64,000 nt of DNA from a virus: the IMG/VR virus record IMGVR_UViG_3300045988_183789. The stretch is one strand, 5' to 3'. The position numbers and the translations under genes were made by a program. Under the pieces are notes generated by a model. That model was not told where the DNA came from and searched no databases. It saw only the letters and a program-made list of their open reading frames with translations. Shown here piece after piece: positions 1,345-64,000 of this stretch. Numbering within the stretch: position 1 is the stretch's first letter; every line of letters begins with the position of its first letter.

Positions 1345-1487
1345 GGGATAGCTCCCTTCTGGCAATCAGTAATGGTTGCCAGTGTCTTGCAATGGTCACC
1401 ACCTCCACGTTGGTGCAAGACGGTAATGTACTGAAAGGCAGTATAGCTGAGAGTGACTCTGAAATATGTTCGCAAGGGAGTGATGTG

Positions 1488-6829: not shown

Positions 6830-6841
6830 GTATTAACTCTA

Positions 6842-6875
6842 ATCCCGGTCTTGTGATAGGCCGGGATTTTTCTTT
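6842..6875 (+). terminator. Rho-independent terminator after the coupling-protein gene
   Basis: ATCCCGG ... CCGGGAT stem followed by TTTTT. Confidence 0.6.
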
Positions 6876-6911
6876 TCCCCGATTCAGCAATGAGTCGGGA
6901 ACTACGCACAT

Positions 6912-6975
6912 CGACAGCCTCCGCGCGGCGCGTAGTGGTTAGTGCCCGTATCCTGCTATCGGGCAGCGAATGTCG
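6912..6975 (+). other. Structured-element family copy 1 (AGACAGCCTCC-core element)
   Basis: Core CGACAGCCTCCGCGCGGCG is closed by the CGACA ... TGTCG helix. Compare copies at 32972, 35504, 62632, 62962, 63630 and 63899. Confidence 0.45.
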
Positions 6976-7011
6976 ATAACATACTACATCCCTACAAAGG
7001 AGACCAATACC

Positions 7012-8172: not shown

Positions 8173-8311
8173 TCCATGCCGACTGTCTGCTGCTTTCCCG
8201 GTGGACAGCCGGTTGCCATGCAAGATACCTGCCTTCTCGTGGCGCATGGTGAGCAACTGCATAACCGCAGGCCGATGGTATCAGAATACAGATTTTATGT
8301 GATTGGGGTGA

Positions 8312-17382: not shown

Positions 17383-18141
17383 ATGACCACGAACTTTGAG
17401 AACACCTATCAGGCATTCATGCACTGTGACGTAGACAAGCTGGCTGCGGAGTTTGCAGCTATGTATCACAGTGGCGGCGAGGAGCGTGACCGGCTCGCAG
17501 ATGCTAAGGAAGAGGTCAATGCTGCATTCATGCGCATGAAGACGCTCCCCCTGAAAGTAGAGCCGGAGCAGAAACTGCTCTTCGTTTGCAAGGGCTTTGG
17601 TGACGTGGGAGATGACACCGTCTGCATCGAAGCCAGTGACCTCCGTGCCTGGAAAGAGAAGCACACGAAAGTATCTGAAGCTGAAGCCATCAGCGATGAG
17701 ATGCTTACCTTTATGAGCACCGATGACATCATGGCGGCCGTAATGAAGCAGGACCTGCCGACTCAGTACGCTTTTGAATTTTGCAGCTGGGAAGAGATTC
17801 TCAGCTGGAAGCTGGCACCGTCCAGTATCTATATCTACGGCCTTGAGTGGTGCCTTTCCCGCGTGTTGTGGGAAATGACCTTTTTTGGCATCGAACCTGA
17901 AGGTATGGAGAACGCCAAAGCTGAAATCGACGCGAACCTTGAGGAAGCAAAGAAAGACCTTGCTGAAAACGGCGAACCCAGCAAATGCATTCCGTTCGAG
18001 GAAGTCGTAAAGAAGCTGCTGGGCGACGACTATACAGAAGACTGGTATCCCGAAGAAGAGCAGGAGAGAGACCGGCGGAATATGGCGATTGCGGCCTACA
18101 AGGGAAATCATGAAGCAGAGAGGCTGCTCGCGATGCTGTGA
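17383..18141 (+). CDS. Hypothetical acidic protein
   Basis: 252 aa, strongly acidic C-terminus. RBS GGAAAGG. Confidence 0.5.
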   Translation: MTTNFENTYQAFMHCDVDKLAAEFAAMYHSGGEERDRLADAKEEVNAAFMRMKTLPLKVEPEQKLLFVCKGFGDVGDDTVCIEASDLRAWKEKHTKVSEAEAISDEMLTFMSTDDIMAAVMKQDLPTQYAFEFCSWEEILSWKLAPSSIYIYGLEWCLSRVLWEMTFFGIEPEGMENAKAEIDANLEEAKKDLAENGEPSKCIPFEEVVKKLLGDDYTEDWYPEEEQERDRRNMAIAAYKGNHEAERLLAML

Positions 18142-18199
18142 GGTGCCCTATAATTCATCCAGAACAAAATTAACCCGGAGCAGAAAGGAGATGATAGAG

Positions 18200-18988
18200 A
18201 TGCTTATTCATATTTTTGGCGATACACATGGACCGGATGAGATTTTCAAAATCAATCCGAAACGGTTCCTTAACCGTGACATCACAAAAGATGATGCGAT
18301 TGTTGTTTGCGGAGACTTCGGATTTCCGTTCTTTCCGACAGACCGCATCCCGGCGGACGACCTCAAGACACTGGACATGCCGCAACACTGTATCAAGTCA
18401 GCGCGAGCGTACCAGATGTACACCGACTGGATGAAGTCTTTTCCTTGCAATATCCTCTTCATCGATGGTAACCACGATAACCACACCTTCTGGGCAGAGC
18501 AGCCTACTGAACGGTGGAACGGCGGCTTGATTCAACGCCTGCCGGAAGCACCGAATGTCATCCACCTGATGCGCGGCGAATACTACACGATTGATGGTAT
18601 GACTGTATGGTGTATGGGAGGTGCAGAGTCTATCGATAAAGCATACCGTACAGAAGGCGTCACTTGGTGGAGGGAAGAAGTCCCATCTCAGAAAGAGATG
18701 TGGCACGGTCTTGACGCATTGGATGAGCATGGGAATAAAGTAGACATCATCATGACGCACATGCTTCCACAGATGCTCATGCCAATCTATTTCAGAGACA
18801 TCAGCCCGATTCACGACCCGACTGGCGTATACCTTGATGAAATTTACCGCCGGGTGAAGTTTAAACAATGGTGTTGCGGCCACATGCACCAAGACATCGA
18901 TAAATCGATGTACAAGCTCAGAGTGCTGTACAACCAGATTGCGGAAATAAACACGGACGACTTTGGGAAAGAAGGTGATAACCAATGA
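18200..18988 (+). CDS. Calcineurin-like metallophosphoesterase
   Basis: RBS AAAGGAGA. Motifs HIFGDTHG and GNHDNH. Confidence 0.7.
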   Translation: MLIHIFGDTHGPDEIFKINPKRFLNRDITKDDAIVVCGDFGFPFFPTDRIPADDLKTLDMPQHCIKSARAYQMYTDWMKSFPCNILFIDGNHDNHTFWAEQPTERWNGGLIQRLPEAPNVIHLMRGEYYTIDGMTVWCMGGAESIDKAYRTEGVTWWREEVPSQKEMWHGLDALDEHGNKVDIIMTHMLPQMLMPIYFRDISPIHDPTGVYLDEIYRRVKFKQWCCGHMHQDIDKSMYKLRVLYNQIAEINTDDFGKEGDNQ

Positions 18989-19827
18989 GCGACATCTATG
19001 TGGCAGGAGATGTGCATGGGAACTACAAAGGTCTCATCGAATCCCTCATGGCCGCCGGATGGAATGAAGGAACCGACAAGCTCGTCTTCGTTGGTGATGT
19101 AGTAGACCGTGGCAAGGAAAACGCAAAGGTCGTCAACTTCATTACGGAACATCCAGATACAGTCCATCTCGTTCTTGGCAACCACGAATACGAACATAGG
19201 CAGATGCTTCGATACTATAAAGCACTCGCACAGTCTCCGACCGTCAGAAAGCTCGCAGCCTGGGTCTTCCTACACTACAAGCAAGGAGAGCACATCTTCA
19301 GAACAAAAGAAGAACTCGAAACGCTCAGATGCAGCATGGAGGAAAGAAAAAAGATTCTCGCCGCTAGACCCCATACGTTCGCTGGGTGGCAGAAGCTTTT
19401 TATTACCTACACACTCGCGTGGGAGAACGATGGGCTTTGGCAGATGGTCGTCTATCTGCTCGACAATATGTGTGGCACACCGTACGAAGCAGAACATACC
19501 ATCTATGAGTATCTGTCTGGTACGAAAAAAACGAGGGAAAGCTTTGAAACTACCTTTGAGAATCAAGCACAGGAACTCAACATCACGCCTCCGCCCGGTT
19601 CTCGATTCAAACAAATCGTGGTAACTCACAACAACCCGTTCGGTCGAGTCTTTGATTATGATAAAGACGAAATGTTGACCGGTCATCGGGATACGCTCTA
19701 TATTTTTGGACATATCCCTCATAAAGAAATCACTCGCATGGACAGACCCAACTCCGGTTGCACATACCTCGACATTGATACATCTCCATACGGAGTATCC
19801 GTCATTAAGCTGTCTAACTATCTCTAA
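18985..19827 (+). CDS. Metallophosphoesterase (PPP/ApaH-like)
   Basis: Motifs GDVHGN, GDVVDRG and GNHE. Confidence 0.7.
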   Translation: MSDIYVAGDVHGNYKGLIESLMAAGWNEGTDKLVFVGDVVDRGKENAKVVNFITEHPDTVHLVLGNHEYEHRQMLRYYKALAQSPTVRKLAAWVFLHYKQGEHIFRTKEELETLRCSMEERKKILAARPHTFAGWQKLFITYTLAWENDGLWQMVVYLLDNMCGTPYEAEHTIYEYLSGTKKTRESFETTFENQAQELNITPPPGSRFKQIVVTHNNPFGRVFDYDKDEMLTGHRDTLYIFGHIPHKEITRMDRPNSGCTYLDIDTSPYGVSVIKLSNYL

Positions 19828-25850: not shown

Positions 25851-26005
25851 GTCAAGGTCTTCCACAGTTGTAGAGTAACTAATGGGATTGCAAACGGCAA
25901 ATTCTTCCATACCCCTTGCATCCCACCACTTGATAGGCTATAATAACAACAGTCGGTTGTTATATGCGAATTAGGAACCATCTGTACGAATTGAGGTTGT
26001 ATATT

Positions 26006-27274
26006 ATGGCAAAAGAGCGAGCCATCCTTCATTGCGATATGAACTGTTTCTATGCCAGCTGCGAGATGGCCTACCATCCCGAATTGCGGGACAAGCCGAT
26101 TGCAGTATGCGGTGACCCAGAGCGACGGAGCGGCATCGTATTGACAGCTTCGTATCCGGCCAAGCGGATGGGGGTAAAAACCGGTATGCCGCTTTGGGAG
26201 GCGCAGCAGCATTGCAGAGACATCACCTTTATCCCGGCTCACTATGACCTATACACCCGATTCAGTGGCTATACAAGAGAAATCTTCCTTCGCTACACAG
26301 ACCAGGTCGAACCGTTTGGTTTGGATGAGGCCTGGCTCGATTGTACCGCGAGTCAGTCTCTCTTTGGGACAGGGGAGGAGATAGCAAAGAAAATCTCCGA
26401 CACCGTCAAGGACGAACTCGGCATTACCTGCTCGGTCGGAGTCAGCTGGAACAAGACGATGGCAAAGCTCGGCTCGGACTATAAAAAGCCGGATGCCATT
26501 ACGGTCATCAATAGGCAGAACTTTGAGAAGATAGTATGGCCGCTGCCTGCTTCAGATTTGCTATATGTTGGGAGAAAGACAGCCGCCAAGTTAGACAACT
26601 ATGCTATTCATACCATTGGAGACTTGGCAAAGACAAGACCCCAGTTTTTGCAGGAGAAGCTCGGCAAGGTAGGACTCTTGCTCTGGAGATTTGCCAACGG
26701 CCTGGATTCTGACCCGGTGGCGAAGTACGAGCAGCGGGAGGTGCTTGCTCCCATCAAGAGCATCGGAAATAGCTGGACGACACCACGGGACTTAAAGACC
26801 GACCAGGATGTTTGGATAGTGCTTTACCTGCTCGCAGAGAGTGTCGCGGCACGCCTCCGAGAGAGCCATTTCCGATGCCGAGGCGTGGAGGTGAGTTTGA
26901 GGGACTCCAACCTGTTCAGCTTCGAGCACCAGATGAAGCTGTCCCTGCCGACGATGCAGGAGCAGGAGATAGCGACGGCCGCGTTCACGTTATATAAAAA
27001 GCACTATCATTGGAGCGAGCATCTTCGTTCCATTGGCGTGCGGGCCATAGACCTACAGCCGGATACGGAGCCTTGCCAAATCTCGTTCGACTTCAGTGCC
27101 GAAAAGCAAGAAGAGATGGAACGCTTAGAATCTGCCATTGATGGTGTCCGAAATAGATTTGGATACTATTCCGTGCAGCGAGCCGTGATGTATAAGGACC
27201 GACTCCTCTCACATTGCGACGCGAGGGCAGACCATACGATTCACCCACACGGATACTTACAAGGGAGCATATAA
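26006..27274 (+). CDS. Y-family DNA polymerase (DinB/UmuC/ImpB family)
   Basis: N-terminus AILHCDMNCFYASCE with the conserved D and CFYAS motif, typical of Y-family catalytic cores. About 420 aa. Confidence 0.85.
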   Translation: MAKERAILHCDMNCFYASCEMAYHPELRDKPIAVCGDPERRSGIVLTASYPAKRMGVKTGMPLWEAQQHCRDITFIPAHYDLYTRFSGYTREIFLRYTDQVEPFGLDEAWLDCTASQSLFGTGEEIAKKISDTVKDELGITCSVGVSWNKTMAKLGSDYKKPDAITVINRQNFEKIVWPLPASDLLYVGRKTAAKLDNYAIHTIGDLAKTRPQFLQEKLGKVGLLLWRFANGLDSDPVAKYEQREVLAPIKSIGNSWTTPRDLKTDQDVWIVLYLLAESVAARLRESHFRCRGVEVSLRDSNLFSFEHQMKLSLPTMQEQEIATAAFTLYKKHYHWSEHLRSIGVRAIDLQPDTEPCQISFDFSAEKQEEMERLESAIDGVRNRFGYYSVQRAVMYKDRLLSHCDARADHTIHPHGYLQGSI

Positions 27275-32927: not shown

Positions 32928-32971
32928 TTGAGGTTCATCACACAGCCCATTGAGGGCTGCTGCCGCTCAAC

Positions 32972-33058: not shown

Positions 33059-33451
33059 ATGAAAACACAACAGGTCCCAAACTCTCCCTATTTCATCTGC
33101 TATGACGAAAACGGCTTTTTCTGTGTATCCAAAGATAAGGATGGAAAAGAACCTATTTCTGCCTTTGAGACACAAGCATTTCTCGATGCAGTAGCCAATG
33201 GACTACTCTATATCGAGAAAGAACGAAAGAACAGATACCAGCGTATTGACGAAGCCCAAAAAGCCGCTTTTGCCAAAGGTGAAGCGGAAGGCAAAGAAAA
33301 CAAGCTCATCGCCACAGTCAAGGAACTGAAGGAGGAGCAAGCATTGAGGGAAGAGCAAGAGCGCAAATGGGCCTACGAAGCGTATACTCATACTCCGTAT
33401 TACAGCGGGACAAGGACAGAGTGGGTTCGCTTATCTCGTGGAGGATGGTGA
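33059..33451 (+). CDS. Hypothetical protein
   Basis: RBS AAGGGGAGAAAG. Confidence 0.45.
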   Translation: MKTQQVPNSPYFICYDENGFFCVSKDKDGKEPISAFETQAFLDAVANGLLYIEKERKNRYQRIDEAQKAAFAKGEAEGKENKLIATVKELKEEQALREEQERKWAYEAYTHTPYYSGTRTEWVRLSRGGW

Positions 33452-35475: not shown

Positions 35476-35503
35476 GCGGGGTTCTCCCCGCAGCTGCCTT
35501 TAC

Positions 35504-35573
35504 GCAAAGAGGCCTCCACGAGGCGGGCAGCGGGCAACAGCTACGGCTGGCAGACAACTTTGCTTTCTAACAA
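35504..35573 (+). other. Structured-element family copy 3
   Basis: GCAAAGAGGCCTCCACGAGGCGGGCAGCGGGCAAC ... CTTTGC. The closing helix is GCAAAG / CTTTGC. Confidence 0.4.
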
Positions 35574-35618: not shown

Positions 35619-36506
35619 ATGACTTCTGAACAGGTTCGTATCGCACTCACCGCCAATGCCGTTACTCGCTCGACCCGTACCGGCTTCGATTTTGAGGACC
35701 CCTGCGGCAAGACGCTGGACGAATTCACCAAGGGCGCTACGCTTCAGTGCCTGCGTGTTGCCCAGCAGATGCAGCAGCCTGGCTTTGAAAAGGTGCTGGC
35801 TGCCCAGATTTTCCCGTGCTACACCATCGCCAACTGGAACCAGACCAAGGTCATCTATGATTTCGGCAAGGATTTTCTGGAGCTGCTGATGGATACCGAT
35901 GACCTCACCATCCATCGCGAGGTGCTGGAGCGCCTGCCGTTCAAGAACTTCTATGTGCCTCTGTACAACAGCGTAGACTACTGCGGCATGTTCGTACATA
36001 TCGAGTTTGATACAAAGACGGATGACACCTTCGTTGGCATCGTCCTCGTGGGCCCGGTCCAGAACGAAAAGGAGAACTTCGCGTTCCTGTCTCTGCCCGC
36101 TTGGATTAAGGAGGGTCAGAGCCTGACGGAGGCGACTCGCAGCACGAAACAGTACATCGAAAAAGCATCTTCGACTCGCGATAAAGATGACATCACTATT
36201 CCTGAAACGCTGGACGCTATCCCGTCTGTTTACGGCGAAGGCACGCCCTATGTCCGCCTCGCAATGCTGTGTGCCTACTACCTTGCCAGCAAAGGCGCAG
36301 AGATTCGTCTGGACAGTCCGAAAAAGGACGAGCGTCCTGTCTTTACGTTCAAGGGCCAGACCAAGAAAGTCAATATCAAGACCTTCGTGGTGGGCCATTA
36401 TCTGATGGAGCGTTACAAGAAGGAAGCGAACGGTAAGGCTCCCACCTGGCGGCACTATTGGTGCGGCAATGGCCGCGAGCGCCGTGAGTGCAAGTTCTCC
36501 TTTTGA
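35619..36506 (+). CDS. Hypothetical protein
   Basis: RBS GGAGGA. Confidence 0.45.
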   Translation: MTSEQVRIALTANAVTRSTRTGFDFEDPCGKTLDEFTKGATLQCLRVAQQMQQPGFEKVLAAQIFPCYTIANWNQTKVIYDFGKDFLELLMDTDDLTIHREVLERLPFKNFYVPLYNSVDYCGMFVHIEFDTKTDDTFVGIVLVGPVQNEKENFAFLSLPAWIKEGQSLTEATRSTKQYIEKASSTRDKDDITIPETLDAIPSVYGEGTPYVRLAMLCAYYLASKGAEIRLDSPKKDERPVFTFKGQTKKVNIKTFVVGHYLMERYKKEANGKAPTWRHYWCGNGRERRECKFSF

Positions 36507-38105: not shown

Positions 38106-38134
38106 TTGATGAATTGTGCGAATTGCAGATAATA
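38106..38134 (+). promoter_or_regulatory. GCGAATTG-box promoter, copy b
   Basis: TTGATG aattGTGCGAATTGcag ATAATA. Confidence 0.5.
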
Positions 38135-38166
38135 AAAATCAGATATATATTGGGAGGGAAAATGAC

Positions 38167-39444
38167 ATGTTTCCGTTTTTCAAAAAGAAGCAAGCGCCCG
38201 CTAATGTTCCTGAAATCATACCGATTCAGGAAGAAGGCGGTGTCTGCATTGCAAAGTGCTGGACAGGAAAAGAGGATGCCGATATAGTCGTCAACATGAC
38301 TGACGCTTCCAAACATCAAAGCTCAGTCATCTCCATTGTCGGAAGCCACGGCCAGGGCAAGGATTTTACTGGCAAGTTGATTCTTTACCGCCTTTGCAAG
38401 CAAGGAGCACAAGCTACTATCCTAACGGATGGGTTGAGCCGTGAAGAGTACGGCTATATGTGCGACCAGCTTGGCGGTAAGAACGTGATTATAGGAGAAG
38501 AAAACTCACATATCAACTTGTTCGACATTCGCAAGCCGAAAGAAGGCTCCCGTAAGTGTTCCGTTCTAACAAGAAAAGTACAGGAACTGCTCACAGTGTT
38601 CAGAGCAATGTATCCTGAGATGACACCAGAGCAAGCGGGATTGCTTGATGCGTTACTCTACCGCCTTTATAAGGTCAAAGGCATCACCTATGACAATGCC
38701 AGTCTTCTCGTGGAAGGCTCAGACCAGTACAAAGAGTTCCCGACTATAGAAGACTTTTATACGACCATTAAGCTTGCACATCTGAAAGAACTTGATGACT
38801 TCGCAAACGTGCTTTCACAGTTTGTAGATGGACCTTATGGCTGGTTCAACCATAAGACGGATGTTGATTGGGATAGTCCTTTCCTTGTGCTGGACTTTAT
38901 GAAATACAGGGGACAAATCGAAAAAGACAGTACGGCCAAGGACTTTATGATGGCCTATTGCTTTGAAATCCTCAGCGAGCGTATGCAGAACGAGGCGGAC
39001 AAGAAGGCTATTCTGATGCGGGATGTATTCTTTGGCGAGAACCGTGACGTTATGAAAAATGCTCCGTTTATGCTGGAGCGTGACACCACTTTGAGCTGGA
39101 GCAAACACCTCTGCCAGAACGCGATGCCCTGTGACTGCACCGTAATCACCGTTACCAGCGTGTTTAACGACGGTATAGACGATGCGTTTCTCCATGAAAT
39201 CATGGCTGATTCAGATGTACAGGTATACCACAAAATATTCAGCCATTTGGTTCCCAATGTGGCAAAAGCATGCCACTTGAGCGAAAAGAACGCAAAATAC
39301 GTCTCAGAGCTTCAAAGGGGACATGTCATTATTTTTGCGGATGGTAAGTGGACATGGAGCGATGTGAAGGCTGATGATGAAGAATATAAGATGATGACCG
39401 AATATCCTTCTGACATCAGAGTCTATGGGAGGGACTGGCAATGA
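38167..39444 (+). CDS. Hypothetical protein
   Basis: RBS GGGAGGG. Contains GSHGQGKD, a degenerate P-loop-like motif that is not a canonical Walker A. Confidence 0.45.
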   Translation: MFPFFKKKQAPANVPEIIPIQEEGGVCIAKCWTGKEDADIVVNMTDASKHQSSVISIVGSHGQGKDFTGKLILYRLCKQGAQATILTDGLSREEYGYMCDQLGGKNVIIGEENSHINLFDIRKPKEGSRKCSVLTRKVQELLTVFRAMYPEMTPEQAGLLDALLYRLYKVKGITYDNASLLVEGSDQYKEFPTIEDFYTTIKLAHLKELDDFANVLSQFVDGPYGWFNHKTDVDWDSPFLVLDFMKYRGQIEKDSTAKDFMMAYCFEILSERMQNEADKKAILMRDVFFGENRDVMKNAPFMLERDTTLSWSKHLCQNAMPCDCTVITVTSVFNDGIDDAFLHEIMADSDVQVYHKIFSHLVPNVAKACHLSEKNAKYVSELQRGHVIIFADGKWTWSDVKADDEEYKMMTEYPSDIRVYGRDWQ

Positions 39445-45586: not shown

Positions 45587-48415
45587 ATGACTCTCGCTAA
45601 CCTGTCTACTGAGCAACAGGACCTTGTACGCCTGGCTCTCGCAGGCAGAAATATACTCTGTGACGCTTGCATCGGCAGCGGTAAAACATCGACCATCAAC
45701 GTGTTGTGTAACGAGTTTGACGCCTCCAAACAGATTCTGTACCTGACCTATAACCGTCTGCTAAAACTCGACGCGCAAGAAAAAATCCTAAACGACAATG
45801 TTGTCGTCCAGAACTACCACGGCTTTGCTTCAAAACTCCTCTATCGGCACGGAGTTCGTAATATTGGACAGGGCGAGCAAATTAAGAAGGCGCTCGATTT
45901 GCATGTTCCGGTCGGTCGCTATGACGTGCTCATCATCGATGAGTACCAAGATATTAACGAAGAAATCTCTCGAATGCTTGAATATATTAAGGAAGAAAAC
46001 CCCACCATGCAAATTATTGCGGTGGGGGATATGGCGCAGAAAATCTACGACACCACATCTTTGGACATCTGGAACTTCATCAACAAGTTCCTCGGCAAAC
46101 ACACGCAGGTCAACTTTACCCAATGCTTCCGCTTGTCCCACGACTTGGCCGAGCGCCTTGGCACTATCTGGAATAAGGAAATCAACGGAGTCAACGAGAA
46201 CTGCAAAGTCAAGTCCATGACGAAGGATGAGGTCATCGAGTACCTCAACGATTTGGACCCGAAGAACGTCCTATGCCTTGGCGCTCGTACCGGCCAGATG
46301 GCCGCAGTTTTGAATGCCTTGGAAGAGCGCCCCGATAACCTTTACGACAAAAAACATGTTTATGCCAGCATCAAGGACAACGACGGCGAAAAAAGCGTAG
46401 CTCCGAACAGCAATGTGGGCATCTTCACAACATTCGACGGCAGCAAGGGCATGGAACGTCCTATCTGCGTGGTCTTCGATTTCACCGAGGATTACTGGGC
46501 AACCCGTATGCGTCAGCCGCTGACTCGCTACGAAATCATGCGCAACCTCTTTTGCGTAGCTGCGAGCCGTGGCAAGCAGGAGGTCATCTTCGTCAAACCC
46601 GATAAGCGTAGCCTCGTGAGCGACAAGACACTGATGACCCCTGTCAAGACTCGCACCACCTTTAAGGACAAATTCGACATCAGTGAAATGTTCGATTTCA
46701 AGTTCGATGAAGATGTGGATGCGTGCTACAACCTTATCACGGCCAAGCAGGTATTCCAACAAGACCAGACGGAAATCGAAATCAAGCACTCCGATGCGAT
46801 GATTGACCTGTCGCCCTGCATTGGCATCTACCAGCAGGCAAACTTCTTCGATTTTTACGACATCGACAGCGCTATCGCCTTCTTCATGTACCTACACAAG
46901 GACAAGATGGCGAAGGTTCCAACCACTTGGAAGTCCGTTGAACAAAAAGTTCTGTTTCTTACAATGCTGATGACGAGCCAGGACCGTTATATCAAGCAGG
47001 TAGAACTGCCTTTCATCACGCCGGAACAGGCAAAAGCGCTGACTGACCGCCTCTCTACGATGTTTACCCATGATGAAGAGGTTCAGGAACGCGCAGAACT
47101 AAACATTGTGGTAGAACAGGATGAACTGAAGCAGCCTGTCACGTCGCTTATCGTTAGCGGTATGGCCGATGTAGTCAAGGACAACAAGGTCTATTATCTG
47201 AAGTTCGTATCAAACCTCGCACACAAGCACTTCATCCAGTGCGCCTGCTATATGCTCGCCACAGGCCTTCCTACCGGCGTTCTTTGGAACATCCGGGATA
47301 ACACGATGTATGAAGTCGAAATTCCGGACCGCACGGCTTTTCTGAATGCGGTAGTGAAGTGCATCACCAAGGGCGTCTATACGGAAGCTCTCGCCTACAA
47401 TCTGGAGAAAGACTACTCCCAGAGCCTTGACACGATTCTCGACCGTGTTATGTCCGACACTTCGCTGCCTGAATTTGATACCGGCGGCAACATTGTTGAG
47501 GAAAAGCCGCAGGACGAAGGTGTTGCTATTATCAAGCAGGGTGAGCAGTATGTCATCCTGGATGCGGGAACTCGCTCTATCGTGGGCGGTACGGCAGTAA
47601 ACGGCTATGACACAATTCTGGCCGCCTGCGAAGCATACGTGAAACAGAATAAGAAAGCTACGGAAGAATCGGTCAATAAGAAAGAACTTCTCCATGTCAT
47701 TGAACAGTGGCTTGATGACCATGCAGAGTTCGAACATCAGATGTCTTGCGTGGCAGTCGATATTGAGAACCATGTCGGCCCCTATTCGGGTTATTCGAAC
47801 TTCTCTACTTATGTGGTTCGCAAGATGCTTAAAGACTGCGGCTTGGTCATCGACTTCAATGAGCGTCAGCTTCTCAAGGTCTGGAAAGTCCGCGAGAAGA
47901 AGCGTCCAAAGCCTGTTACCCAGTACAGCCCGGCTCAAGCCTCGAAACAGGTGGTTTTGAATCCGGCTGATAGTTTCGAGCAAATGCTGAACAGCTTGCA
48001 GAGCATGGGTGTGGATGTCAAAGTTGCAGAAGAAACCGCAACCGAACCCTATGACTTCTCCCAGTACAAGCGTCTGCCGCCGGAGCGTAAGACGTATGAC
48101 TCTGAACCTGTCGGCTGGTGGAAGGACGGAGAAGAGCAGTATAAGAAAGAAAAAGAAGCGTTTCCGGCCGAATATCGAGTTATTCGCTCCTCCAAGCTAT
48201 CTAAACCCGGTGATGTACGCTATGTCATCATGGAAGAGGATTCCAACACTGTGCTGGATGATGCAAACGGGTATGGGTACAAATCCGTTCAGGCTGCGCA
48301 CAAGGGCTATGGCTATAAGCGGCGCAACGGTGGCAGTTTTGGTTCCAAGAAGAAAGAAAAGAGTGAAGCAAAGCCTCAGACCACGGGCGAGCAGCTTTCG
48401 TTTGGAGGTCTGTGA
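45587..48415 (+). CDS. Superfamily-1 (UvrD/PcrA-like) helicase with a ~600-aa C-terminal extension
   Basis: RBS GGAGGA. Walker A CIGSGKTST and motif II LIIDEYQD. Confidence 0.65.
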   Translation: MTLANLSTEQQDLVRLALAGRNILCDACIGSGKTSTINVLCNEFDASKQILYLTYNRLLKLDAQEKILNDNVVVQNYHGFASKLLYRHGVRNIGQGEQIKKALDLHVPVGRYDVLIIDEYQDINEEISRMLEYIKEENPTMQIIAVGDMAQKIYDTTSLDIWNFINKFLGKHTQVNFTQCFRLSHDLAERLGTIWNKEINGVNENCKVKSMTKDEVIEYLNDLDPKNVLCLGARTGQMAAVLNALEERPDNLYDKKHVYASIKDNDGEKSVAPNSNVGIFTTFDGSKGMERPICVVFDFTEDYWATRMRQPLTRYEIMRNLFCVAASRGKQEVIFVKPDKRSLVSDKTLMTPVKTRTTFKDKFDISEMFDFKFDEDVDACYNLITAKQVFQQDQTEIEIKHSDAMIDLSPCIGIYQQANFFDFYDIDSAIAFFMYLHKDKMAKVPTTWKSVEQKVLFLTMLMTSQDRYIKQVELPFITPEQAKALTDRLSTMFTHDEEVQERAELNIVVEQDELKQPVTSLIVSGMADVVKDNKVYYLKFVSNLAHKHFIQCACYMLATGLPTGVLWNIRDNTMYEVEIPDRTAFLNAVVKCITKGVYTEALAYNLEKDYSQSLDTILDRVMSDTSLPEFDTGGNIVEEKPQDEGVAIIKQGEQYVILDAGTRSIVGGTAVNGYDTILAACEAYVKQNKKATEESVNKKELLHVIEQWLDDHAEFEHQMSCVAVDIENHVGPYSGYSNFSTYVVRKMLKDCGLVIDFNERQLLKVWKVREKKRPKPVTQYSPAQASKQVVLNPADSFEQMLNSLQSMGVDVKVAEETATEPYDFSQYKRLPPERKTYDSEPVGWWKDGEEQYKKEKEAFPAEYRVIRSSKLSKPGDVRYVIMEEDSNTVLDDANGYGYKSVQAAHKGYGYKRRNGGSFGSKKKEKSEAKPQTTGEQLSFGGL

Positions 48416-51920: not shown

Positions 51921-52694
51921 ATGAGACGGACAAAAGCAGTGATAACTGCTGTGGCAGTAGGCGTACTGACCTTTGCCACAGCTTGCGCGAGTAGTGCATC
52001 TACTCCCGTATCAGTACCACCAGACTCTTTTGCCAGCACAACGGAATCAGCGGCAACGGCTGAGACAGCGAATGATGCGATTTATCTAAGCACCGACAGC
52101 ATCCCGGAACCCACACCTCATGCTCCTTTGTCGAAACCAACAGCTGCACCAGAGCCTACTCCTACACAGACGCCTGAACCGACAGAAGCACCAATACCGG
52201 TCCCTACAGATACTCCGGCTCCACTCACGACCAGCGTATGGGGTGATGTGGTGCCTGCCACGTATGGCGCTTCCTACGGGACAGTCTCATGCAGCAGCGT
52301 AGGTATCAACGCTTCCCTTATCTGGGGCGATGACCAAGCTCTCCTCGACAGCCGCAGCGGTGTATATCAGTACGCAGGCTCCTATCAGGTAGGCTACGGT
52401 GGTTGTCATCTTCTTTGCTCCCATAACGACAGCACTTTGGCTTTGCTTCAATACGTAAGTATTGGTGACGAATTTGTGGTCACTACAGACTACGGACAAT
52501 ACGTATATACGGTAGATTCTGCCAGGCCGGGAACGGTAACGGCAGACGCGGGCACTGTGGTGGCCGATGATGGAACCATTCTTGTGGACCTTTCGAACAC
52601 CACCGACCGGCTCGTGATGTATACCTGCTATCCGTTCGGATACTACCAAACCACAAACCAACGCTATGTCGTCAGAGCCACGCTGTCTGCTTAG
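51921..52694 (+). CDS. Secreted sortase-like transpeptidase
   Basis: Signal peptide, Pro/Thr-rich linker, and C-terminal LVMYTCYP (TLxTC-like) with an Arg 15 residues downstream. Confidence 0.45.
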   Translation: MRRTKAVITAVAVGVLTFATACASSASTPVSVPPDSFASTTESAATAETANDAIYLSTDSIPEPTPHAPLSKPTAAPEPTPTQTPEPTEAPIPVPTDTPAPLTTSVWGDVVPATYGASYGTVSCSSVGINASLIWGDDQALLDSRSGVYQYAGSYQVGYGGCHLLCSHNDSTLALLQYVSIGDEFVVTTDYGQYVYTVDSARPGTVTADAGTVVADDGTILVDLSNTTDRLVMYTCYPFGYYQTTNQRYVVRATLSA

Positions 52695-53092: not shown

Positions 53093-54250
53093 ATGCAAAG
53101 CAAAAACACATTCTTGCGGAGAGCAGCGGCAGCGATTGCGGCACTCTTCACCCTCAGCTTCGCAGGCTGCGGTCAGACCCCGATTGATTCGGGTAGTCTT
53201 CCTGTATCCGGGGTCGTCTCAGAAAGTCCTGTCTCTGACAGCGAGCAGACGGCTGGCGTAACGGAAGACGGCAGCTTTACTATCCACTTCATTGATGTGG
53301 GGCAGGCGGACTCTGCTCTTGTTACCTGTGATGGGCATTCGATGCTCATTGACGGTGGCAATGTTGATGATTCTGACCTCGTATATTCTGTTCTGGAACG
53401 TGAGACAGACGGACATCTGGATTATGTTGTTGGCACGCACGCCCATGAAGACCATATCGGAGGTCTTTCCGGTGCATTCGAAGCCGTGACGGCTGATGTC
53501 ACGTATTGCCCTGTCACAGAGTACGACAGTAAAGCTTTTCGGAACTTCAAGCAGCGAGCGGAAGAAAGAGGCAACGGCCTTACGATTCCGTCGGTAGGGG
53601 ATACATTCTCCCTTGGCGATGCCGAAGTGACTGTTATCGCCGTGAACTCAGTGCCGGATGATACCAACAATACCTCCATTGTCCTACGCATCGTATATGG
53701 AGAAACCTCATTCTTGTTTACGGGTGATGCAGAAGAGCCTGCCGAAGATGTTATCCTACAGTCTGGACAAGACATCCAATCTACTGTTCTGAAGGTAGGG
53801 CATCATGGTTCTCGAACCTCCACATCCGAAGCGTTCCTCGACACAGTGAATCCAGCCTATGCTGTTATTTCCTGTGGCAAGGACAACAGCTATGGTCATC
53901 CACACGACATCACTTTGGCAAAGCTCCAGAGCAAAGACATTGAGGTTTTCAGAACTGACGAGATGGGAGACATCTACTGCACATCGGACGGTAAGGACGT
54001 CACTTTCACTTATGGCGAATATCACCAGGCGGCAGAAAGCACTACCACCGATACAGTCGAGGTCGAGGAGTCACAGCAAAAGGATACGACGGTCAGTACC
54101 TATGTCCTGAACACAAACTCTATGAAATTTCATAAGCCTGACTGCTCCGCCGTAGCTCAAATGAGCGATGCAAACCGCAAAGACTATACAGGTTCCCGCG
54201 ATGACCTAATCGAGCAGGGCTATACACCTTGCGGGTATTGCAAGCCGTAA
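53093..54250 (+). CDS. Metallo-beta-lactamase-fold lipoprotein with a Cys-rich C-terminal tail
   Basis: RBS AAAGGAGA. Lipobox LSFAGC. MBL motif GTHAHEDHIGG. C-terminal C...C..C. Confidence 0.65.
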   Translation: MQSKNTFLRRAAAAIAALFTLSFAGCGQTPIDSGSLPVSGVVSESPVSDSEQTAGVTEDGSFTIHFIDVGQADSALVTCDGHSMLIDGGNVDDSDLVYSVLERETDGHLDYVVGTHAHEDHIGGLSGAFEAVTADVTYCPVTEYDSKAFRNFKQRAEERGNGLTIPSVGDTFSLGDAEVTVIAVNSVPDDTNNTSIVLRIVYGETSFLFTGDAEEPAEDVILQSGQDIQSTVLKVGHHGSRTSTSEAFLDTVNPAYAVISCGKDNSYGHPHDITLAKLQSKDIEVFRTDEMGDIYCTSDGKDVTFTYGEYHQAAESTTTDTVEVEESQQKDTTVSTYVLNTNSMKFHKPDCSAVAQMSDANRKDYTGSRDDLIEQGYTPCGYCKP

Positions 54251-62359: not shown

Positions 62360-62454
62360 AACGTGCTTCAAATAATCTGTATTGCCGAATCATGCGAACC
62401 GCGTATACTAAATAATACATTAGTCGTCAAGGTCTTGTGCCTTACGACTACCAC

Positions 62455-62530
62455 GCTTCTGTAGCTCAGATGGCAGAGCGGCTGTTTTGTAAGCAGCGGG
62501 TCGCAGGTTCGAGCCCTGTCGGAAGCTCCA
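62455..62530 (+). tRNA. tRNA-Thr (anticodon TGT)
   Basis: Cloverleaf folded by hand. Acceptor GCTTCTG / CGGAAGC, anticodon loop TTTGTAA, T-loop GGTTCGAGCCC, encoded CCA. Confidence 0.8.
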
Positions 62531-62631
62531 CTGGTTTTCATCGTTCCTCCGTTGAAATCCAAAATCCCGCTTGATGAATCGTAACTTCTTGATACGATGC
62601 TATACACACATCTTGCGGGCTATGTCACCAT

Positions 62632-62694
62632 AAGACAGCCTCCTCGCGGCGGTGACGGTAACACGGGTATTGAGCTCCCCGTGGCAAATGTCTT
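62632..62694 (+). other. Structured-element family copy 4
   Basis: AAGACAGCCTCCTCGCGGCGG ... GGCAAATGTCTT. Confidence 0.4.
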
Positions 62695-62700
62695 ATTTCT

Positions 62701-62776
62701 GGGTCGTTAGCTCAGTCGGCAGAGCGCTTGACTGTTAATCAAGATGTCACAGGTTCGAGCCCTGTACGACCCTCCA
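62701..62776 (+). tRNA. tRNA-Asn (anticodon GTT)
   Basis: Acceptor GGGTCGT / ACGACCC, anticodon loop CTGTTAA, T-loop GGTTCGAGCCC, encoded CCA. Confidence 0.8.
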
Positions 62777-62961
62777 TATACCGAATATCAAGTGTTGTAA
62801 GTGTCATCCCGACACACATCACAACTACTATAGTGCTACATACCCTCACTTGATAGACGGTAATAACAACCTCGGAGAATGTGCATTGTAGCTGCTTGCA
62901 GCACATCATACTACACCAGTATAGTTCTACACATCCTTGCGCAATCTCCGAGAATCCCTCA

Positions 62962-63029
62962 CAAGACAGCCTCCGCGTGGCGAGGGATGGACAACGCAAG
63001 TTTTGAAGGTTCTTGCGGCCAATGTCTTG
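62962..63029 (+). other. Structured-element family copy 5
   Basis: CAAGACAGCCTCCGCGTGGCGAGGGATGGACAAC ... GGCCAATGTCTTG. Confidence 0.4.
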
Positions 63030-63077
63030 TTATTGACACTTTGAAGGTTCTTGCGGCCAATGTCTTGTTATTGACAC
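63002..63077. repeat. 38-bp perfect tandem duplication abutting the tRNA-Met 5' end
   Basis: TTTGAAGGTTCTTGCGGCCAATGTCTTGTTATTGACAC x2. Confidence 0.8.
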
Positions 63078-63149
63078 GGGGTATAGCAATGGTAGCTTAC
63101 CAGCCTCATACGCTGGTGGTTGTGGGTTCAAGTCCCATCCCCGTATCCA
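63075..63149 (+). tRNA. tRNA-Met (anticodon CAT). C1-A72 mismatch suggests an initiator-type tRNA
   Basis: Acceptor CACGGGG / CCCCGTA with a C1/A72 mismatch, anticodon loop CTCATAC, T-loop GGTTCAAGTCC, encoded CCA. The anticodon stem lacks three consecutive G-C pairs, so initiator versus elongator is ambiguous. Confidence 0.7.
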
Positions 63150-63183
63150 TCGTCTCGGCCGCGACGCTAAATCGGTCATATAT

Positions 63184-63260
63184 GGCTCGTTAGTTCAGAT
63201 GGTTAGAACGCCAGCCTGTCACGCTGGAGGTCGCCGGTTCGAGTCCGGCACGAGTCGCCA
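63184..63260 (+). tRNA. tRNA-Asp (anticodon GTC)
   Basis: Acceptor GGCTCGT / ACGAGTC, anticodon loop CTGTCAC, T-loop GGTTCGAGTCC, encoded CCA. Confidence 0.8.
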
Positions 63261-63629
63261 CTGGGTGTAGTACAAGGGAACACGTCAATCGCGCGATAAG
63301 ACGTAATAGTGGAGTACAGGTGCGACGCGTAAGCACGGAACACGGTGGTGTGACACCACCCATCCAGAACACGTCCCGACACAGACGTTAAACAGGTCGA
63401 AATCTAACAGGGAGGGCACTCCGATGCAGAAGTAATTCTCGTCCGATTGTCAAAAATCCGAACAAAGGAGAACGCCTATGCACTAATTACGTCCGATAGG
63501 CCGCATAAGTGAAAGGGATAATCCGATGCACAGGTAAACCTGATGGCGGGCAGCTCCCGTCTTAAAACGTCACGATAGGTAGCGCCTATCAGGGCACGCC
63601 GGTTCTTATCGACGTGCCCTGCCACCCAT

Positions 63630-63690
63630 GAGACAGCCTCCACGCGGCGGGTGGTGGACAACGATTACTACAGTCGCTGACGAATGTTCT
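63630..63690 (+). other. Structured-element family copy 6
   Basis: GAGACAGCCTCCACGCGGCGGGTGGTGGACAAC. 3' boundary unclear. Confidence 0.3.
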
Positions 63691-63898
63691 CTACCCAATC
63701 TGGAGGGTAAACCAGAGAAAGTAAGCAACCTTTGGCCCAGGTCATGGCTTAAAACCGACCTACCCGTGTTGCAAAACGCCTTTGGACGTTCCCTCCGGGG
63801 TACGGCGTCGGCGGACGCTTAACGAACCCCCTCAAGCAGCAGGGAATACGCGGAAGCTGCTTGCGCGGACTGGTCCACACAATCCGCGTTACTGCTCA

Positions 63899-63970
63899 GA
63901 AGACAACCTCCTCGTGGTGAGCAGTGGGCAACATTGTTGCGGTCAATACCCGCGACATGGCTAAGTCTTC
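63899..63970 (+). other. Structured-element family copy 7
   Basis: GAAGACAACCTCCTCGTGGTGAGCAGTGGGCAAC ... GTCTTC. Confidence 0.35.
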
Positions 63971-64000
63971 AATCATGGGAATCGCATCACAACTCCCGGT

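Follow-up and report, generated by a model that had tools for sequence, protein, structure and literature searches.

Predicted HDV-like ribozymes of the Faecalibacterium prausnitzii type, preceded by helices, in the tRNA array and gene spacers of a type IV secretion-bearing element

A tRNA array interleaved with a repeated element

The window, by which we mean the whole 64,000-nucleotide stretch analysed here, encodes a type IV coupling protein, two VirB4-like ATPases, an M23 peptidase and a sortase, and is best read as a type IV secretion-bearing mobile element of gut Clostridia. A scan of roughly 50 proteins revealed neither a capsid protein nor a true terminase. A phage origin was dropped, as the matches to PHROG terminase and tail families fall on P-loop and metallo-beta-lactamase domains that Pfam assigns as VirB4/TraG-like and Lactamase_B. 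Searches of a phage collection yielded no close match to the window except tRNA-Asp, and those of a plasmid collection none except the tRNAs. On the other side, relatives of the window stand in IMG/VR as viral contigs; an exact look-up of one window protein returned no contig, but look-ups by homologs did.

Four tRNA genes are located on the plus strand, together with a candidate promoter and a short tandem duplication:

62382–62409, plus strand: candidate sigma-70-like promoter TTGCCG-16-TATACT upstream of tRNA-Thr (consensus match only, with a site count no higher than in shuffled sequences)
62455–62530, plus strand: tRNA-Thr(UGU)
62701–62776, plus strand: tRNA-Asn(GUU), with predicted ribozyme F (below) as 5′ leader
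63002–63077, plus strand: perfect 38-bp tandem duplication (TRF: period 38, 2.0 copies, 100% identity)
63075–63149, plus strand: tRNA-Met(CAU)
63184–63260, plus strand: tRNA-Asp(GUC)

All four tRNAs, which the original prediction had named from the sequence, were called by both ARAGORN and RF00005 (55–71.5 bits, gathering score 29), and each encodes its CCA. As read from the sequence, tRNA-Met(CAU) has an initiator-like C1×A72 mismatch and A11:U24 pair, without GGG/CCC in the anticodon stem. TRF also recovered the predicted 38-bp repeat, which spans the 3′ half of ribozyme G, a 7-nt linker and nucleotides 1–3 of tRNA-Met; it was found neither in four aligned relatives nor in others scanned, and is specific to the window sequence.

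Four copies of one structured element had been reported among these tRNA genes, and two lines agree with this: the core AGACAGCCTCCNCGYGGYG matches at 62633, 62964, 63631 and 63901, and a repeat search places the four copies in one family (D1). The core also matches at 6912 and 32974, giving six matches in the window against 0.10 expected, with at least six in 0 of 100 shuffles. The copies extend over 62624–62694, 62954–63029, 63621–63691 and 63891–63970, so that their real 5′ edges lie 8–9 nt farther upstream than first described: the conserved core starts only after the 5′ strand of P1. Rfam and our own model, R1, add three copies (at 1384, 8215 and 35493) to the core matches, bringing the window total to nine full copies plus one duplicated 3′ half (63038–63067). 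The copies in the tRNA spacers belong to the same family as the other five. With the tRNAs called and the spacer copies placed in that family, neither condition set for refuting the original prediction applies. Its picture of one element family interleaved with tRNA genes on a mobile element is supported, the window carrying type IV secretion genes. All nine are intergenic and on the plus strand, which also carries essentially all plausible genes; no plausible gene contains a copy. The copies, and the evidence for each, are as follows:

1384–1458, plus strand: copy A; RF00094 33.5 bits; structural descriptor; R1 just 11.7 bits; P3 ACC/GGT, L3 of 8 nt
6901–6977, plus strand: copy B; RF02682 33 bits; R1 71.9 bits (copy used to build R1)
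8215–8282, plus strand: copy C; RF02682 33 bits; RF00094 33.4 bits; R1 60.8 bits (copy used to build R1); G1-U wobble in P1
32962–33032, plus strand: copy D; RF02682 43.0 bits; ATG 33059 lies 27 nt downstream
35493–35563, plus strand: copy E; RF02682 35.9 bits; ATG 35619 lies 56 nt downstream
62624–62694, plus strand: copy F; RF02682 29 bits; R1 45.2 bits; structural descriptor and hand alignment; P1 GTCACC/GGTGAC, P2 AAGACA/TGTCTT, P3 GCC/GGC, P4 CACGGG/CCCGTG, L3 TCCTCGC, P1.1 GG, J4/2 GCAAA; predicted cleavage 5′ of G62624
62954–63029, plus strand: copy G; RF02682 41.5 bits; R1 86.1 bits (copy used to build R1); relatives; P1 ATCCCTC/GAGGGAT, P2 CAAGACA/TGTCTTG, P4 CGCAAG/CTTGCG, J4/2 GCCAA; predicted cleavage 5′ of A62954
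63621–63691, plus strand: copy H; RF02682 35 bits; R1 73.2 bits (copy used to build R1); hand alignment; P1 GCCACCC/GGGTGGT (G1-U wobble), P2 GAGACA/TGT(T)CTC (one bulge), P4 CGATT/AGTCG, J4/2 CTGACGAA
63891–63970, plus strand: copy I; RF02682 42.3 bits; RF00094 31.2 bits; R1 75.4 bits (copy used to build R1); P1 ACTGCTC/GAGCAGT, P3 ACC/GGT (compensated), long P4, J4/2 GCTAA

Fold, catalytic core and family of the predicted ribozymes

On sequence evidence, we identify the repeated element as an HDV-like self-cleaving ribozyme of the Faecalibacterium prausnitzii type (closest Rfam family RF02682), with predicted cleavage. Its architecture is a nested double pseudoknot of P1, P2 (crossing P1), P3, P1.1 and P4, in which a two-pair P1.1 joins L3 to the strand after P1. 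In a hand alignment of the nine window copies, which was fitted to the structure (another alignment, A5, was fitted to P1 and P3), 99.5% of 190 cells are paired and 18 of 22 pairs are compensatory, in all five helices; slid controls of this alignment reached 32–51%. MAFFT misplaced P1 and P4 when given the raw copies, so an N-padded hand alignment, which MAFFT left gapless, was used instead. Across 78 distinct sequences from the window, its relatives and IMG/VR, 96.5% of cells are paired and 13 of 16 pairs compensated, a result that no shuffle matched; conservation counts from the IMG/VR loci, here and below, are biased because a search with the ribozyme core pattern supplied these loci, and many of the sequences are related. 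The structural descriptor found all nine copies on the plus strand, with no match on the minus strand or in 1.27 Mb of shuffled sequence. Weak R1 matches (20275, 7948, 30909 and others, at most 12 bits), which the descriptor misses, were taken as chance.

The invariant columns of the nine copies are U, C, C, C and G of L3, two G-C pairs of P3, the first G of P1.1 and one A after P1.1. J4/2 contains a C in every copy and starts with GC in eight of them, the variant being copy H; in copies E and H the C taken as catalytic (the C75 equivalent) is a putative choice. P4 is present throughout, and its three outer pairs are all standard and covarying. Copy C combines L3 TTCTCGT with P1.1 GA, and therefore its second P1.1 pair is a compensated U-A; this rare variant is kept in the ortholog of the relative L001 (13583–13649).

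The HDV-like class has a canonical G at +1 and a G-U wobble closing P1 at the cleavage site. The first P1 pair in the window is G-C in four copies, A-U in three (B, G and I) and G-U in two, so that +1 is a G in six of nine; the corresponding counts among the 78 relatives are 36 (G-C), 27 (G-U) and 15 (A-U). The A1-U pairs of B, G and I, and the G-C pair in place of the wobble in four copies, are points in which the window copies depart from a typical ribozyme. Irregularities were also observed in J4/2 and the bulged P2 of copy H, and in the G ortholog of a close relative, L002, where P1 has a C-A mismatch.

RF02682, the family of drz-Fpra-1 (HDV-F-prausnitzii), gives eight of the nine copies their top Rfam score, at 29–43 bits (E-values 5e-6 to 0.026), all below the gathering score of 44. 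Copy A was matched by RF00094 only. L002 carries three copies above the RF02682 gathering score (51.2, 45.3 and 44.6 bits), and these include the ortholog of copy I. On these scores, the window copies are most aptly placed at the border of the RF02682 family, as its relatives. They resemble drz-Fpra-1 in the full-size fold with a short P4, the L3 CCUC.CG, the GGCAAC stretch after P1 and the GGCUAA-type J4/2, and gut Clostridia are the host group in both. The HDV genomic and antigenomic ribozymes (RF00094) have the identical nested double pseudoknot; their core, CAGCCUCCUCGCUGGCG...GGGCAAC...GGCGAAUGGGAC, is one that we take to be nearly identical to the window core AGACAGCCTCCTCGCGGCG...GGTAAC...GGCAAATGTCTT. 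RF00094 scores the window copies weakly (23–33.5 bits, threshold 50), and the HDV ribozymes differ in their long P4 and in cutting rolling-circle RNA multimers. Rfam detected no hammerhead, twister or other ribozyme class in the window and, at permissive thresholds, nothing credible in the spacers 62531–62623, 62777–62953, 63261–63620 and 63692–63890.

Upstream helices and conserved placement

The predicted cleavage site trails a stable helix by 0–2 nt in eight copies and by 4 nt in copy F. A local hairpin ending 0–2 nt before the site accounts for seven of the nine, compared with 8% of background positions, and the remaining two (F and G) have long-range helices upstream instead. A hairpin in this position also precedes the ribozyme in 96 of 113 unique contexts from relatives, compared with 229 of 600 controls. 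Those of the tRNA region are:

62566–62619, plus strand: long-range helix CCCGC...GCGGG, closing 4 nt before the F cleavage site, within a structured 93-nt spacer (62531–62623); fold −25.8 kcal/mol, z −4.5
62871–62952, plus strand: nested long-range helix CTCGGAGA...TCTCCGAG (inverted repeat I2), ending 1 nt before the G cleavage site
63591–63620, plus strand: hairpin AGGGCACG...CGTGCCCT (inverted repeat I4), ending 0 nt before the H cleavage site
63863–63889, plus strand: hairpin GCGCGGA...TCCGCGT, ending 1 nt before the I cleavage site; −13.1 kcal/mol, z only −1.16

The nested helix upstream of copy G had been predicted, and both the repeat search and folding recovered its arms at 62871–62885 and 62938–62952; the fold of 62777–62953 reaches −53.7 kcal/mol (z −5.95). 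The three palindromes described are likewise visible in the sequence, all within 63261–63620, the one at 63591–63620 being pair I4, whose closing pair is A-T in the window and T-A in relatives. That stretch had also been called free of open reading frames. Two mechanical minus-strand frames (60–61 aa) overlap it, and gene callers put no gene there in relatives.

Only the hairpin 6841–6868, before copy B, fits the form of an intrinsic terminator, a G+C-rich stem-loop with a U run. The helices that abut the cleavage sites were rejected as intrinsic terminators, since each is followed by a ribozyme and has no U run. A scan for promoter-like and terminator-like sites found none adjoining copies A, C, D and E. 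The upstream hairpin could also be a mere shield of ribozyme folding from upstream sequence.

Copies A–E are followed by a start codon 27–56 nt downstream, while H and I are located within long non-coding spacers. Copy A occupies the gap between a gene that stops at 1344 and that of the M23 peptidase (likely start ATG 1488); copy B is preceded by the terminator-like hairpin and then a second hairpin, according to the terminator scan, and followed after 35 nt by ATG 7012. The positions of D and E are conserved: copy D is found 22–25 nt before homologous genes (66–75% amino-acid identity) and copy E 40–44 nt before homologs of about 70% identity. In L001, the region with ribozyme orthologs has a coupling protein 89% identical to that of the window, and compensatory changes in P1, P2 and P3 preserve the fold of these orthologs, as seen for copy A (6745–6816) and for copy B (12240–12315), where two P1 pairs are compensated. 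P2 of copy I, GAAGAC/GTCTTC in the window, is GAAAAC/GTTTTC in relatives. The fold is maintained in relatives down to about 30–70% protein identity.

The copy said to lie directly upstream of tRNA-Asn is ribozyme F, which ends 6 nt before the tRNA. The corresponding gap between ribozyme G and tRNA-Met is 7 nt in relatives, that is, minus the window-specific duplication. A tRNA starts 31–70 nt past the end of P1.1 in 90 of 280 ribozyme matches, and 16 of the 78 distinct ribozymes end 4–7 nt before a tRNA. A ribozyme as leader directly 5′ of a tRNA gene is an arrangement absent from Kienbeck et al. 2024 (PMC10879173), the single paper located on tRNA-linked HDV-like ribozymes, and our literature search turned up no description of HDV-like ribozymes that serve as 5′ leaders of tRNAs or reside in conjugative elements.

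Transcript processing and competing explanations

We consider it moderately probable that these F. prausnitzii-type HDV-like ribozymes cut long same-strand transcripts of the type IV secretion-bearing element into units. In the HDV-like class, the folded RNA cuts itself immediately 5′ of the first P1 nucleotide, yielding an upstream RNA with a 2′,3′-cyclic phosphate and a downstream RNA whose 5′-hydroxyl is buried in P1. Each transcribed copy would fold into the nested double pseudoknot and then cleave 5′ of P1, and the hairpin-plus-ribozyme modules would punctuate long polycistronic transcripts into discrete units, each with a compact ribozyme at its start and a stem-loop at its 3′ end. The tRNA-Asn and tRNA-Met units would be ribozyme-led pre-tRNAs, from which RNase P would then trim the ribozyme as a 5′ leader. 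Self-cleavage in vivo, co-transcription of the units and any effect on RNA stability or expression are what we infer from this scheme. RNase P has no need of a ribozyme within the leader, so that a benefit to the tRNAs is not apparent, a point against this reading. The 5′-OH product of the Bacillus glmS ribozyme is degraded by RNase J1, and therefore cleavage could lower, not raise, downstream expression. Of the roles raised in the original prediction, a processing signal fits best, although the fold of a self-cleaving ribozyme had not been recognised there; given that fold, processing would be done by the RNA itself. The label of small RNA family would hold only insofar as ribozymes, once released, are small RNAs.

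Theta ribozymes are minimal HDV-like ribozymes linked to tRNA genes of mammalian-gut mobile genetic elements (Kienbeck et al. 2024, PMC10879173). They lack P4, are found in Caudoviricetes phages with a cleavage site at most 5 nt from the tRNA 3′ end, and have the sole tRNA-linked role proposed so far, 3′-end formation (PMC10879173). Their cleavage site, like that predicted for the window copies, comes right after a helix and about one unpaired base, the theta helix being the tRNA acceptor stem. It is very unlikely that the window copies form tRNA 3′ ends in this way. The context, a tRNA array on a gut mobile element, would suit such a role, and among diverged relatives 19 of 280 ribozyme matches begin 0–5 nt past a tRNA 3′ end; in some, such as L083, a ribozyme begins immediately behind the discriminator base of a tRNA-Thr without an encoded CCA. 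However, the predicted cleavage sites of the window come 93, 177 and 360 nt after the closest tRNA 3′ end, every one of the four tRNAs has its CCA encoded, five copies are far from any tRNA and the others sit 5′ of or away from tRNAs. The host element, with type IV secretion genes and neither capsid nor terminase in the protein scan, also appears to differ. With P4 retained and their cleavage sites at these distances, the window copies were rejected as theta ribozymes.

A role as regulated switches, in which a metabolite or condition modulates cleavage to tune the downstream gene, we regard as unlikely. The F. prausnitzii ribozyme that has been described occurs once, upstream of glmM, and a review discusses it as a metabolite-modulated regulator; modulation of this kind is shown for glmS. 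Consistent with it, five window copies lie in 5′ untranslated regions at the distances given above, and a review reports allosteric modulation for the closest Rfam family. By contrast with that single copy, nine copies occur here in 64 kb of mobile element, just under the family threshold, each after a helix and two of them leading tRNAs. Their P4 and junctions vary and are short, no additional conserved domain is present that might bind a ligand, the downstream genes are unrelated to one another, and the same module precedes tRNAs and non-coding spacers. It is also quite unlikely that the copies are neutral or selfish repeats that spread within the element and persist without present function, some already inactive. 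Their number in one element, the atypical A1-U pair, the irregular J4/2 of H, the mismatched P1 in the L002 copy of G and the recent 38-bp duplication, which marks a plastic region, would agree with such a history. Set against this are compensatory changes that keep the fold between orthologs and across distant relatives, positions conserved with respect to specific genes and tRNAs, the upstream helix as a consistent partner and the absence of any copy from plausible genes.

Least compatible with the data is a DNA-level element, whether a recombination or attachment site, as the original prediction also proposed, a single-strand promoter or an origin of conjugative transfer, with the fold formed by DNA. 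Conjugative transfer moves DNA as a single strand, type IV secretion genes are present and all copies share one orientation. The invariant positions are, however, exactly the catalytic residues of an RNA enzyme. The copies share only this catalytic core and their helices vary freely by compensation, and therefore no conserved sequence is left for a recombinase to recognise; their flanks are unrelated, and they are intergenic, oriented with transcription and keep a fixed spacing to start codons and to the 5′ ends of tRNAs. We regard this explanation as extremely unlikely.

Transcript punctuation, the reading that we favour, has partial counterparts. RiboJ is an engineered ribozyme insulator placed in front of a 5′ untranslated region. 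Embedded tRNAs punctuate polycistronic transcripts in mitochondria and in bacterial tRNA operons, where RNase P and RNase Z cut at tRNA ends; by analogy, structured RNAs in the window would set where a long transcript is cut into units, with the difference that protein or ribonucleoprotein enzymes cut there, whereas here an extra self-cutting RNA would lie between units. In pRAP, ribozyme-assisted polycistronic expression, engineered self-cleaving ribozymes stand between cistrons (PMC9872166). Like the window copies on the favoured reading, RiboJ and pRAP use a ribozyme that detaches the downstream unit from upstream RNA and fixes its 5′ end, but they are synthetic, mostly of hammerhead type, cut at the 3′ side or internally, and have no evolutionary relation to them.

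If the punctuation reading is true, every internal unit (e.g., 62624–62953, 62954–63620 and 63621–63890) would carry a 5′-OH and a 2′,3′-cyclic phosphate. Such ends are substrates joined by RtcB-type ligases, and circular or re-joined RNAs could therefore arise; the 3′ ends might also be healed and extended like tRNA minihelices. As for RNA-end-healing enzymes, the window offers just a weak sub-threshold likeness of the protein at 18985–19827 to the Pnkp phosphatase domain, which is not evidence. A broader and more doubtful proposal extends the scheme to a large and diverse family of mobile elements of gut Clostridia, in which hairpin-plus-ribozyme modules would serve generally as RNA punctuation, replacing terminator/promoter pairs between units of very long transcripts from one strand and supplying self-cleaving tRNA 5′ leaders. 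Leaders of this kind are the mirror image of the theta arrangement.

The locus is a compact case of nine predicted full-size HDV-like ribozymes in one element, each with an upstream helix; some ribozymes of this family stand 4–7 nt before tRNAs, and the arrangement recurs in relatives. If cleavage is confirmed, it would show ribozymes at work in natural elements both in punctuating transcripts and in leading tRNAs, and engineered ribozyme insulators would gain a natural counterpart. It would also flag that many gut "viral" contigs with these ribozymes may be conjugative elements.

Identity and fold of the repeated element

The repeated structured element noticed among the tRNA genes proved real: its core, AGACAGCCTCCNCGYGGYG, has six matches in the window where chance would give 0.1, and a repeat search placed the four local copies (F–I, starting at 62624, 62954, 63621 and 63891) in one family, each truly beginning 8–9 nt upstream of the start given in the original prediction. 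Read by eye, the copies run from a variable 6–7-nt strand through a short linker, AGACA and GCC-TCCNCGN-GGC to a strand complementary to the first, followed by GG, (N)CAA, a hairpin that varies, GC(N)AA and TGTCT. This order of parts is that of the hepatitis delta virus (HDV) ribozyme, P1-P2-P3-L3-P3′-P1′-P1.1-P4-J4/2-P2′, whose core we take to be a near letter-for-letter match to that of the element.

Using permissive thresholds, RF02682 (HDV ribozyme from F. prausnitzii) matched all four local copies (42.3, 41.5, 35 and 29 bits), and RF00094 gave weaker matches to F, H and I. Elsewhere in the window, one or the other model matched at 32962 (43.0), 35493 (35.9), 6901 (33), 8215 (33) and about 1382–1384 (33.5), corresponding to copies D, E, B, C and A. 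No window copy reached the gathering scores of 44 (RF02682) and 50 (RF00094), and three copies passed the RF02682 threshold in L002, a close relative; the copies are borderline members or close relatives of RF02682, for which the example described has one copy, located upstream of glmM. Our own covariance model, built from five copies, retrieved all nine along with a duplicated 3′ half, and our structural descriptor found all nine on the + strand, with no match on the − strand of the window or in 1.27 Mb of shuffles.

The fold was examined over the full pseudoknotted structure in a nine-copy alignment made by hand, segment by segment with N-padding, and left gapless by MAFFT. Standard pairs occupied 99.5% of 190 cells and both sides had changed in 18 of 22 pairs, spread over P1, P2, P3, P1.1 and P4; none of the shuffles attained these values, and sliding the 3′ partners lowered pairing to 32–51%. 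Only two copies open P1 with the canonical G-U pair; four have G-C there and three A-U. A second alignment, in which 78 distinct sequences were drawn from IMG/VR contigs, close relatives and the window itself, showed 96.5% pairing and compensation in 13 of 16 pairs; both alignments are fitted to the structure and many of the sequences are related. The clearest single case for the fold is copy C (8215–8282), in which L3 reads UUC rather than UCC and P1.1 GA rather than GG, so that the second P1.1 pair is retained as U-A, a rare compensated pair likewise kept in its ortholog (L001, 13583–13649). In this L001 region, where the coupling protein is 89% identical to that of the window, the orthologs of A, B and C carry paired changes in P1, P2 and P3. 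P2 of copy I reads GAAGAC/GTCTTC against GAAAAC/GTTTTC in relatives. It is highly probable that the element is an HDV-like self-cleaving ribozyme, its cleavage being predicted from sequence.

Ribozyme modules among tRNA genes and messages

A helix lies upstream of all nine predicted cleavage sites. In seven copies it is a local hairpin (−11.6 to −20.6 kcal/mol) ending 0–2 nt before the site, a comparable hairpin being present at only 8% of random window positions; in F and G, long-range helices close structured spacers (fold z-scores −4.5 and −5.95). A helix ended within 3 nt of the site in 96 of 113 unique contexts, most often with a gap of 1 nt, compared with 229 of 600 controls. Copies A–E lie 27–56 nt upstream of start codons with ribosome-binding sites. 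Scans for promoter-like and terminator-like sites found none next to copies A, C, D and E. B alone follows a terminator-like hairpin, which has a T run (6841–6868) and separates the gene for the coupling protein from the hairpin-plus-ribozyme module; B would be active only on transcripts that read through this hairpin or begin between it and B.

The four predicted tRNAs were all called by ARAGORN and by Rfam RF00005 (55–71.5 bits; gathering score 29), and all encode CCA:

tRNA genes of the 62360–64000 region
62455–62530, + strand, tRNA-Thr(UGU)
62701–62776, + strand, tRNA-Asn(GUU)
63075–63149, + strand, tRNA-Met(CAU)
63184–63260, + strand, tRNA-Asp(GUC)

A promoter-like site lies upstream of tRNA-Thr. 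The CAU tRNA shares two hallmark features with bacterial initiators, a C1×A72 mismatch and an A11:U24 pair, and lacks the three anticodon-stem G-C pairs; from its sequence it may be an initiator, an elongator or an Ile2 tRNA. The tRNA-Thr is identical to the same gene in L002, L004, L006 and L010 at only 58 of 76 positions within flanks that are 92–100% identical, and by eye seems nearer the tRNA-Thr of L083, a diverged lineage, which suggests replacement of the allele by recombination.

Copy F ends 6 nt before tRNA-Asn; for G and tRNA-Met this distance is 7 nt in all relatives. In the window, the perfect 38-bp tandem repeat at 63002–63077, as originally described, has doubled the 3′ half of G together with the linker and bases 1–3 of tRNA-Met; intact G now lies 45 nt from the tRNA, which the spare 3′ half adjoins. 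The 5′ half could take this spare as its pairing partner in place of the first copy. The duplication was not found in the relatives aligned and scanned, and may be genuine or an assembly artefact.

Folding and a repeat search recovered the predicted nested helix (arms 62871–62885 and 62938–62952) in the spacer 62777–62953, which, like 62531–62623, is unusually well folded (z −5.95 and −4.5, respectively) and 92–100% identical in relatives. The 360-nt spacer 63261–63620 contains the three palindromes reported and, while not literally ORF-free as claimed, holds no plausible gene; a strong ribosome-binding-like AAAGGAG precedes a two-codon ORF (ATG CAC TAA) at 63479. It carries TCCGATGCA(N)AGGTAA twice (63420 and 63522) and further TCCGAT/TCCGAA copies, has an unexceptional overall fold (z −1.6) and gave no Rfam match.

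The mobile element and its relatives

Plausible genes lie essentially all on the + strand, and most of the window proteins beyond the following had no match:

Genes with recognizable products
1488–3275, M23 peptidase
4658–6829, VirD4/TraG-type coupling protein
9799–12507, VirB4-like ATPase
25964–27274, Y-family polymerase
38116–39444, VirB4-like ATPase
45587–48415, UvrD-like helicase
51921–52694, sortase

The mobile element originally proposed is supported by type IV secretion-type genes; no capsid or true terminase was found among about 50 window proteins scanned, and together these results favour a conjugative element over a phage. Part of the ribozyme-bearing "viral" IMG/VR set may be conjugative elements or hybrids. 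Beside the tRNA region, the window (53093–54250) and relatives L002–L011 carry genes typical of anti-defence or leading regions: a metallo-β-lactamase-fold protein with a faint Apyc1-like match, Mor-like regulators and, directly after tRNA-Ser, a small RelA/SpoT-type HD-domain protein; L010 also has an AcrVA2-like gene. Two adjacent calcineurin-like phosphoesterase genes occupy 18089–19827; the second resembles ApaH and lambda-phosphatase and has a weak, sub-threshold match to the phosphatase domain of bacterial Pnkp. A role in healing 2′,3′-cyclic phosphate ends would be pure speculation.

Among genome records, the nearest is a 224-kb contig from a human-gut Clostridiales MAG, and metagenome relatives reach 186–454 kb. 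In these relatives the non-coding region extends beyond the point where the window ends, with at least 16–18 tRNAs in the 10 kb downstream and two more ribozymes, one ending 6 nt before tRNA-Ser. Further downstream, a second, tightly packed array (L002, 18990–20660; also L004, L006 and L010) holds at least nine tRNAs (including four Leu isoacceptors, Gln, Lys, Asn, Trp, Glu, Phe and Tyr) with spacers of 1–80 nt and no ribozymes.

The core pattern occurs in at least 120 IMG/VR contig stretches, and 64 of 120 among the matches listed share proteins with the window (median 56% identity). The 131 collected loci and the window gave 280 descriptor matches: 90 lie directly 5′ of tRNA-Thr(UGU), Asn, Met or Ser, the tRNA starting 31–70 nt after P1.1, and 19 start 0–5 nt past a tRNA 3′ end. 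Among the 78 distinct sequences, 16 end 4–7 nt before a tRNA and four start 0–2 nt after one. Homologs of the genes 33059–33451 and 35619–36506 keep the upstream ribozyme position at about 70% amino-acid identity and control genes have none upstream; absence is not countable here because the loci were chosen by the ribozyme pattern.

Proposed transcript punctuation and known ribozymes

From the known chemistry of such ribozymes, cleavage would fall 5′ of the first nucleotide of each copy, which predicts these RNAs for the local region:

Predicted RNA units
up to 62623, tRNA-Thr plus spacer
62624–62953, F, tRNA-Asn, spacer
62954–63620, G, tRNA-Met, tRNA-Asp, spacer
63621–63890, H plus spacer
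from 63891, I onwards

Internal units would start with a ribozyme and end with a helix. We infer that the modules punctuate long transcripts: upstream units would gain a stem-loop 3′ end without transcription being stopped, downstream mRNAs and pre-tRNAs would receive a fixed, structured 5′ end, and RNase P would still be required for tRNA release. The well-folded spacers 62777–62953 and 62531–62623 would be set free as discrete RNAs whose end is the ribozyme cut. We rate the chances of this punctuation role as roughly even; the upstream hairpin may instead merely shield ribozyme folding.

Identity with the theta ribozymes, minimal HDV-like ribozymes of gut phages, was rejected, as these lack P4 and are defined by a cleavage site no more than 5 nt from a tRNA 3′ end in Caudoviricetes (Kienbeck et al, 2024; PMC10879173); ribozymes upstream of tRNAs go unmentioned in that paper. 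L083 (7953–8101) has, behind a good TTGACG-17-TATAAT promoter, a tRNA-Thr that does not encode CCA; directly after it come a full-size, P4-bearing HDV-like ribozyme, theta-like in placement but non-minimal, then a long hairpin, a second ribozyme and tRNA-Asn. In a literature search of incomplete coverage, we found HDV-like ribozymes described neither as leaders of tRNAs nor in conjugative elements. The ribozyme class is known and the arrangement is new; with activity predicted from sequence, the modules would provide a concrete, multi-copy and conserved test case for what bacterial self-cleaving ribozymes do.
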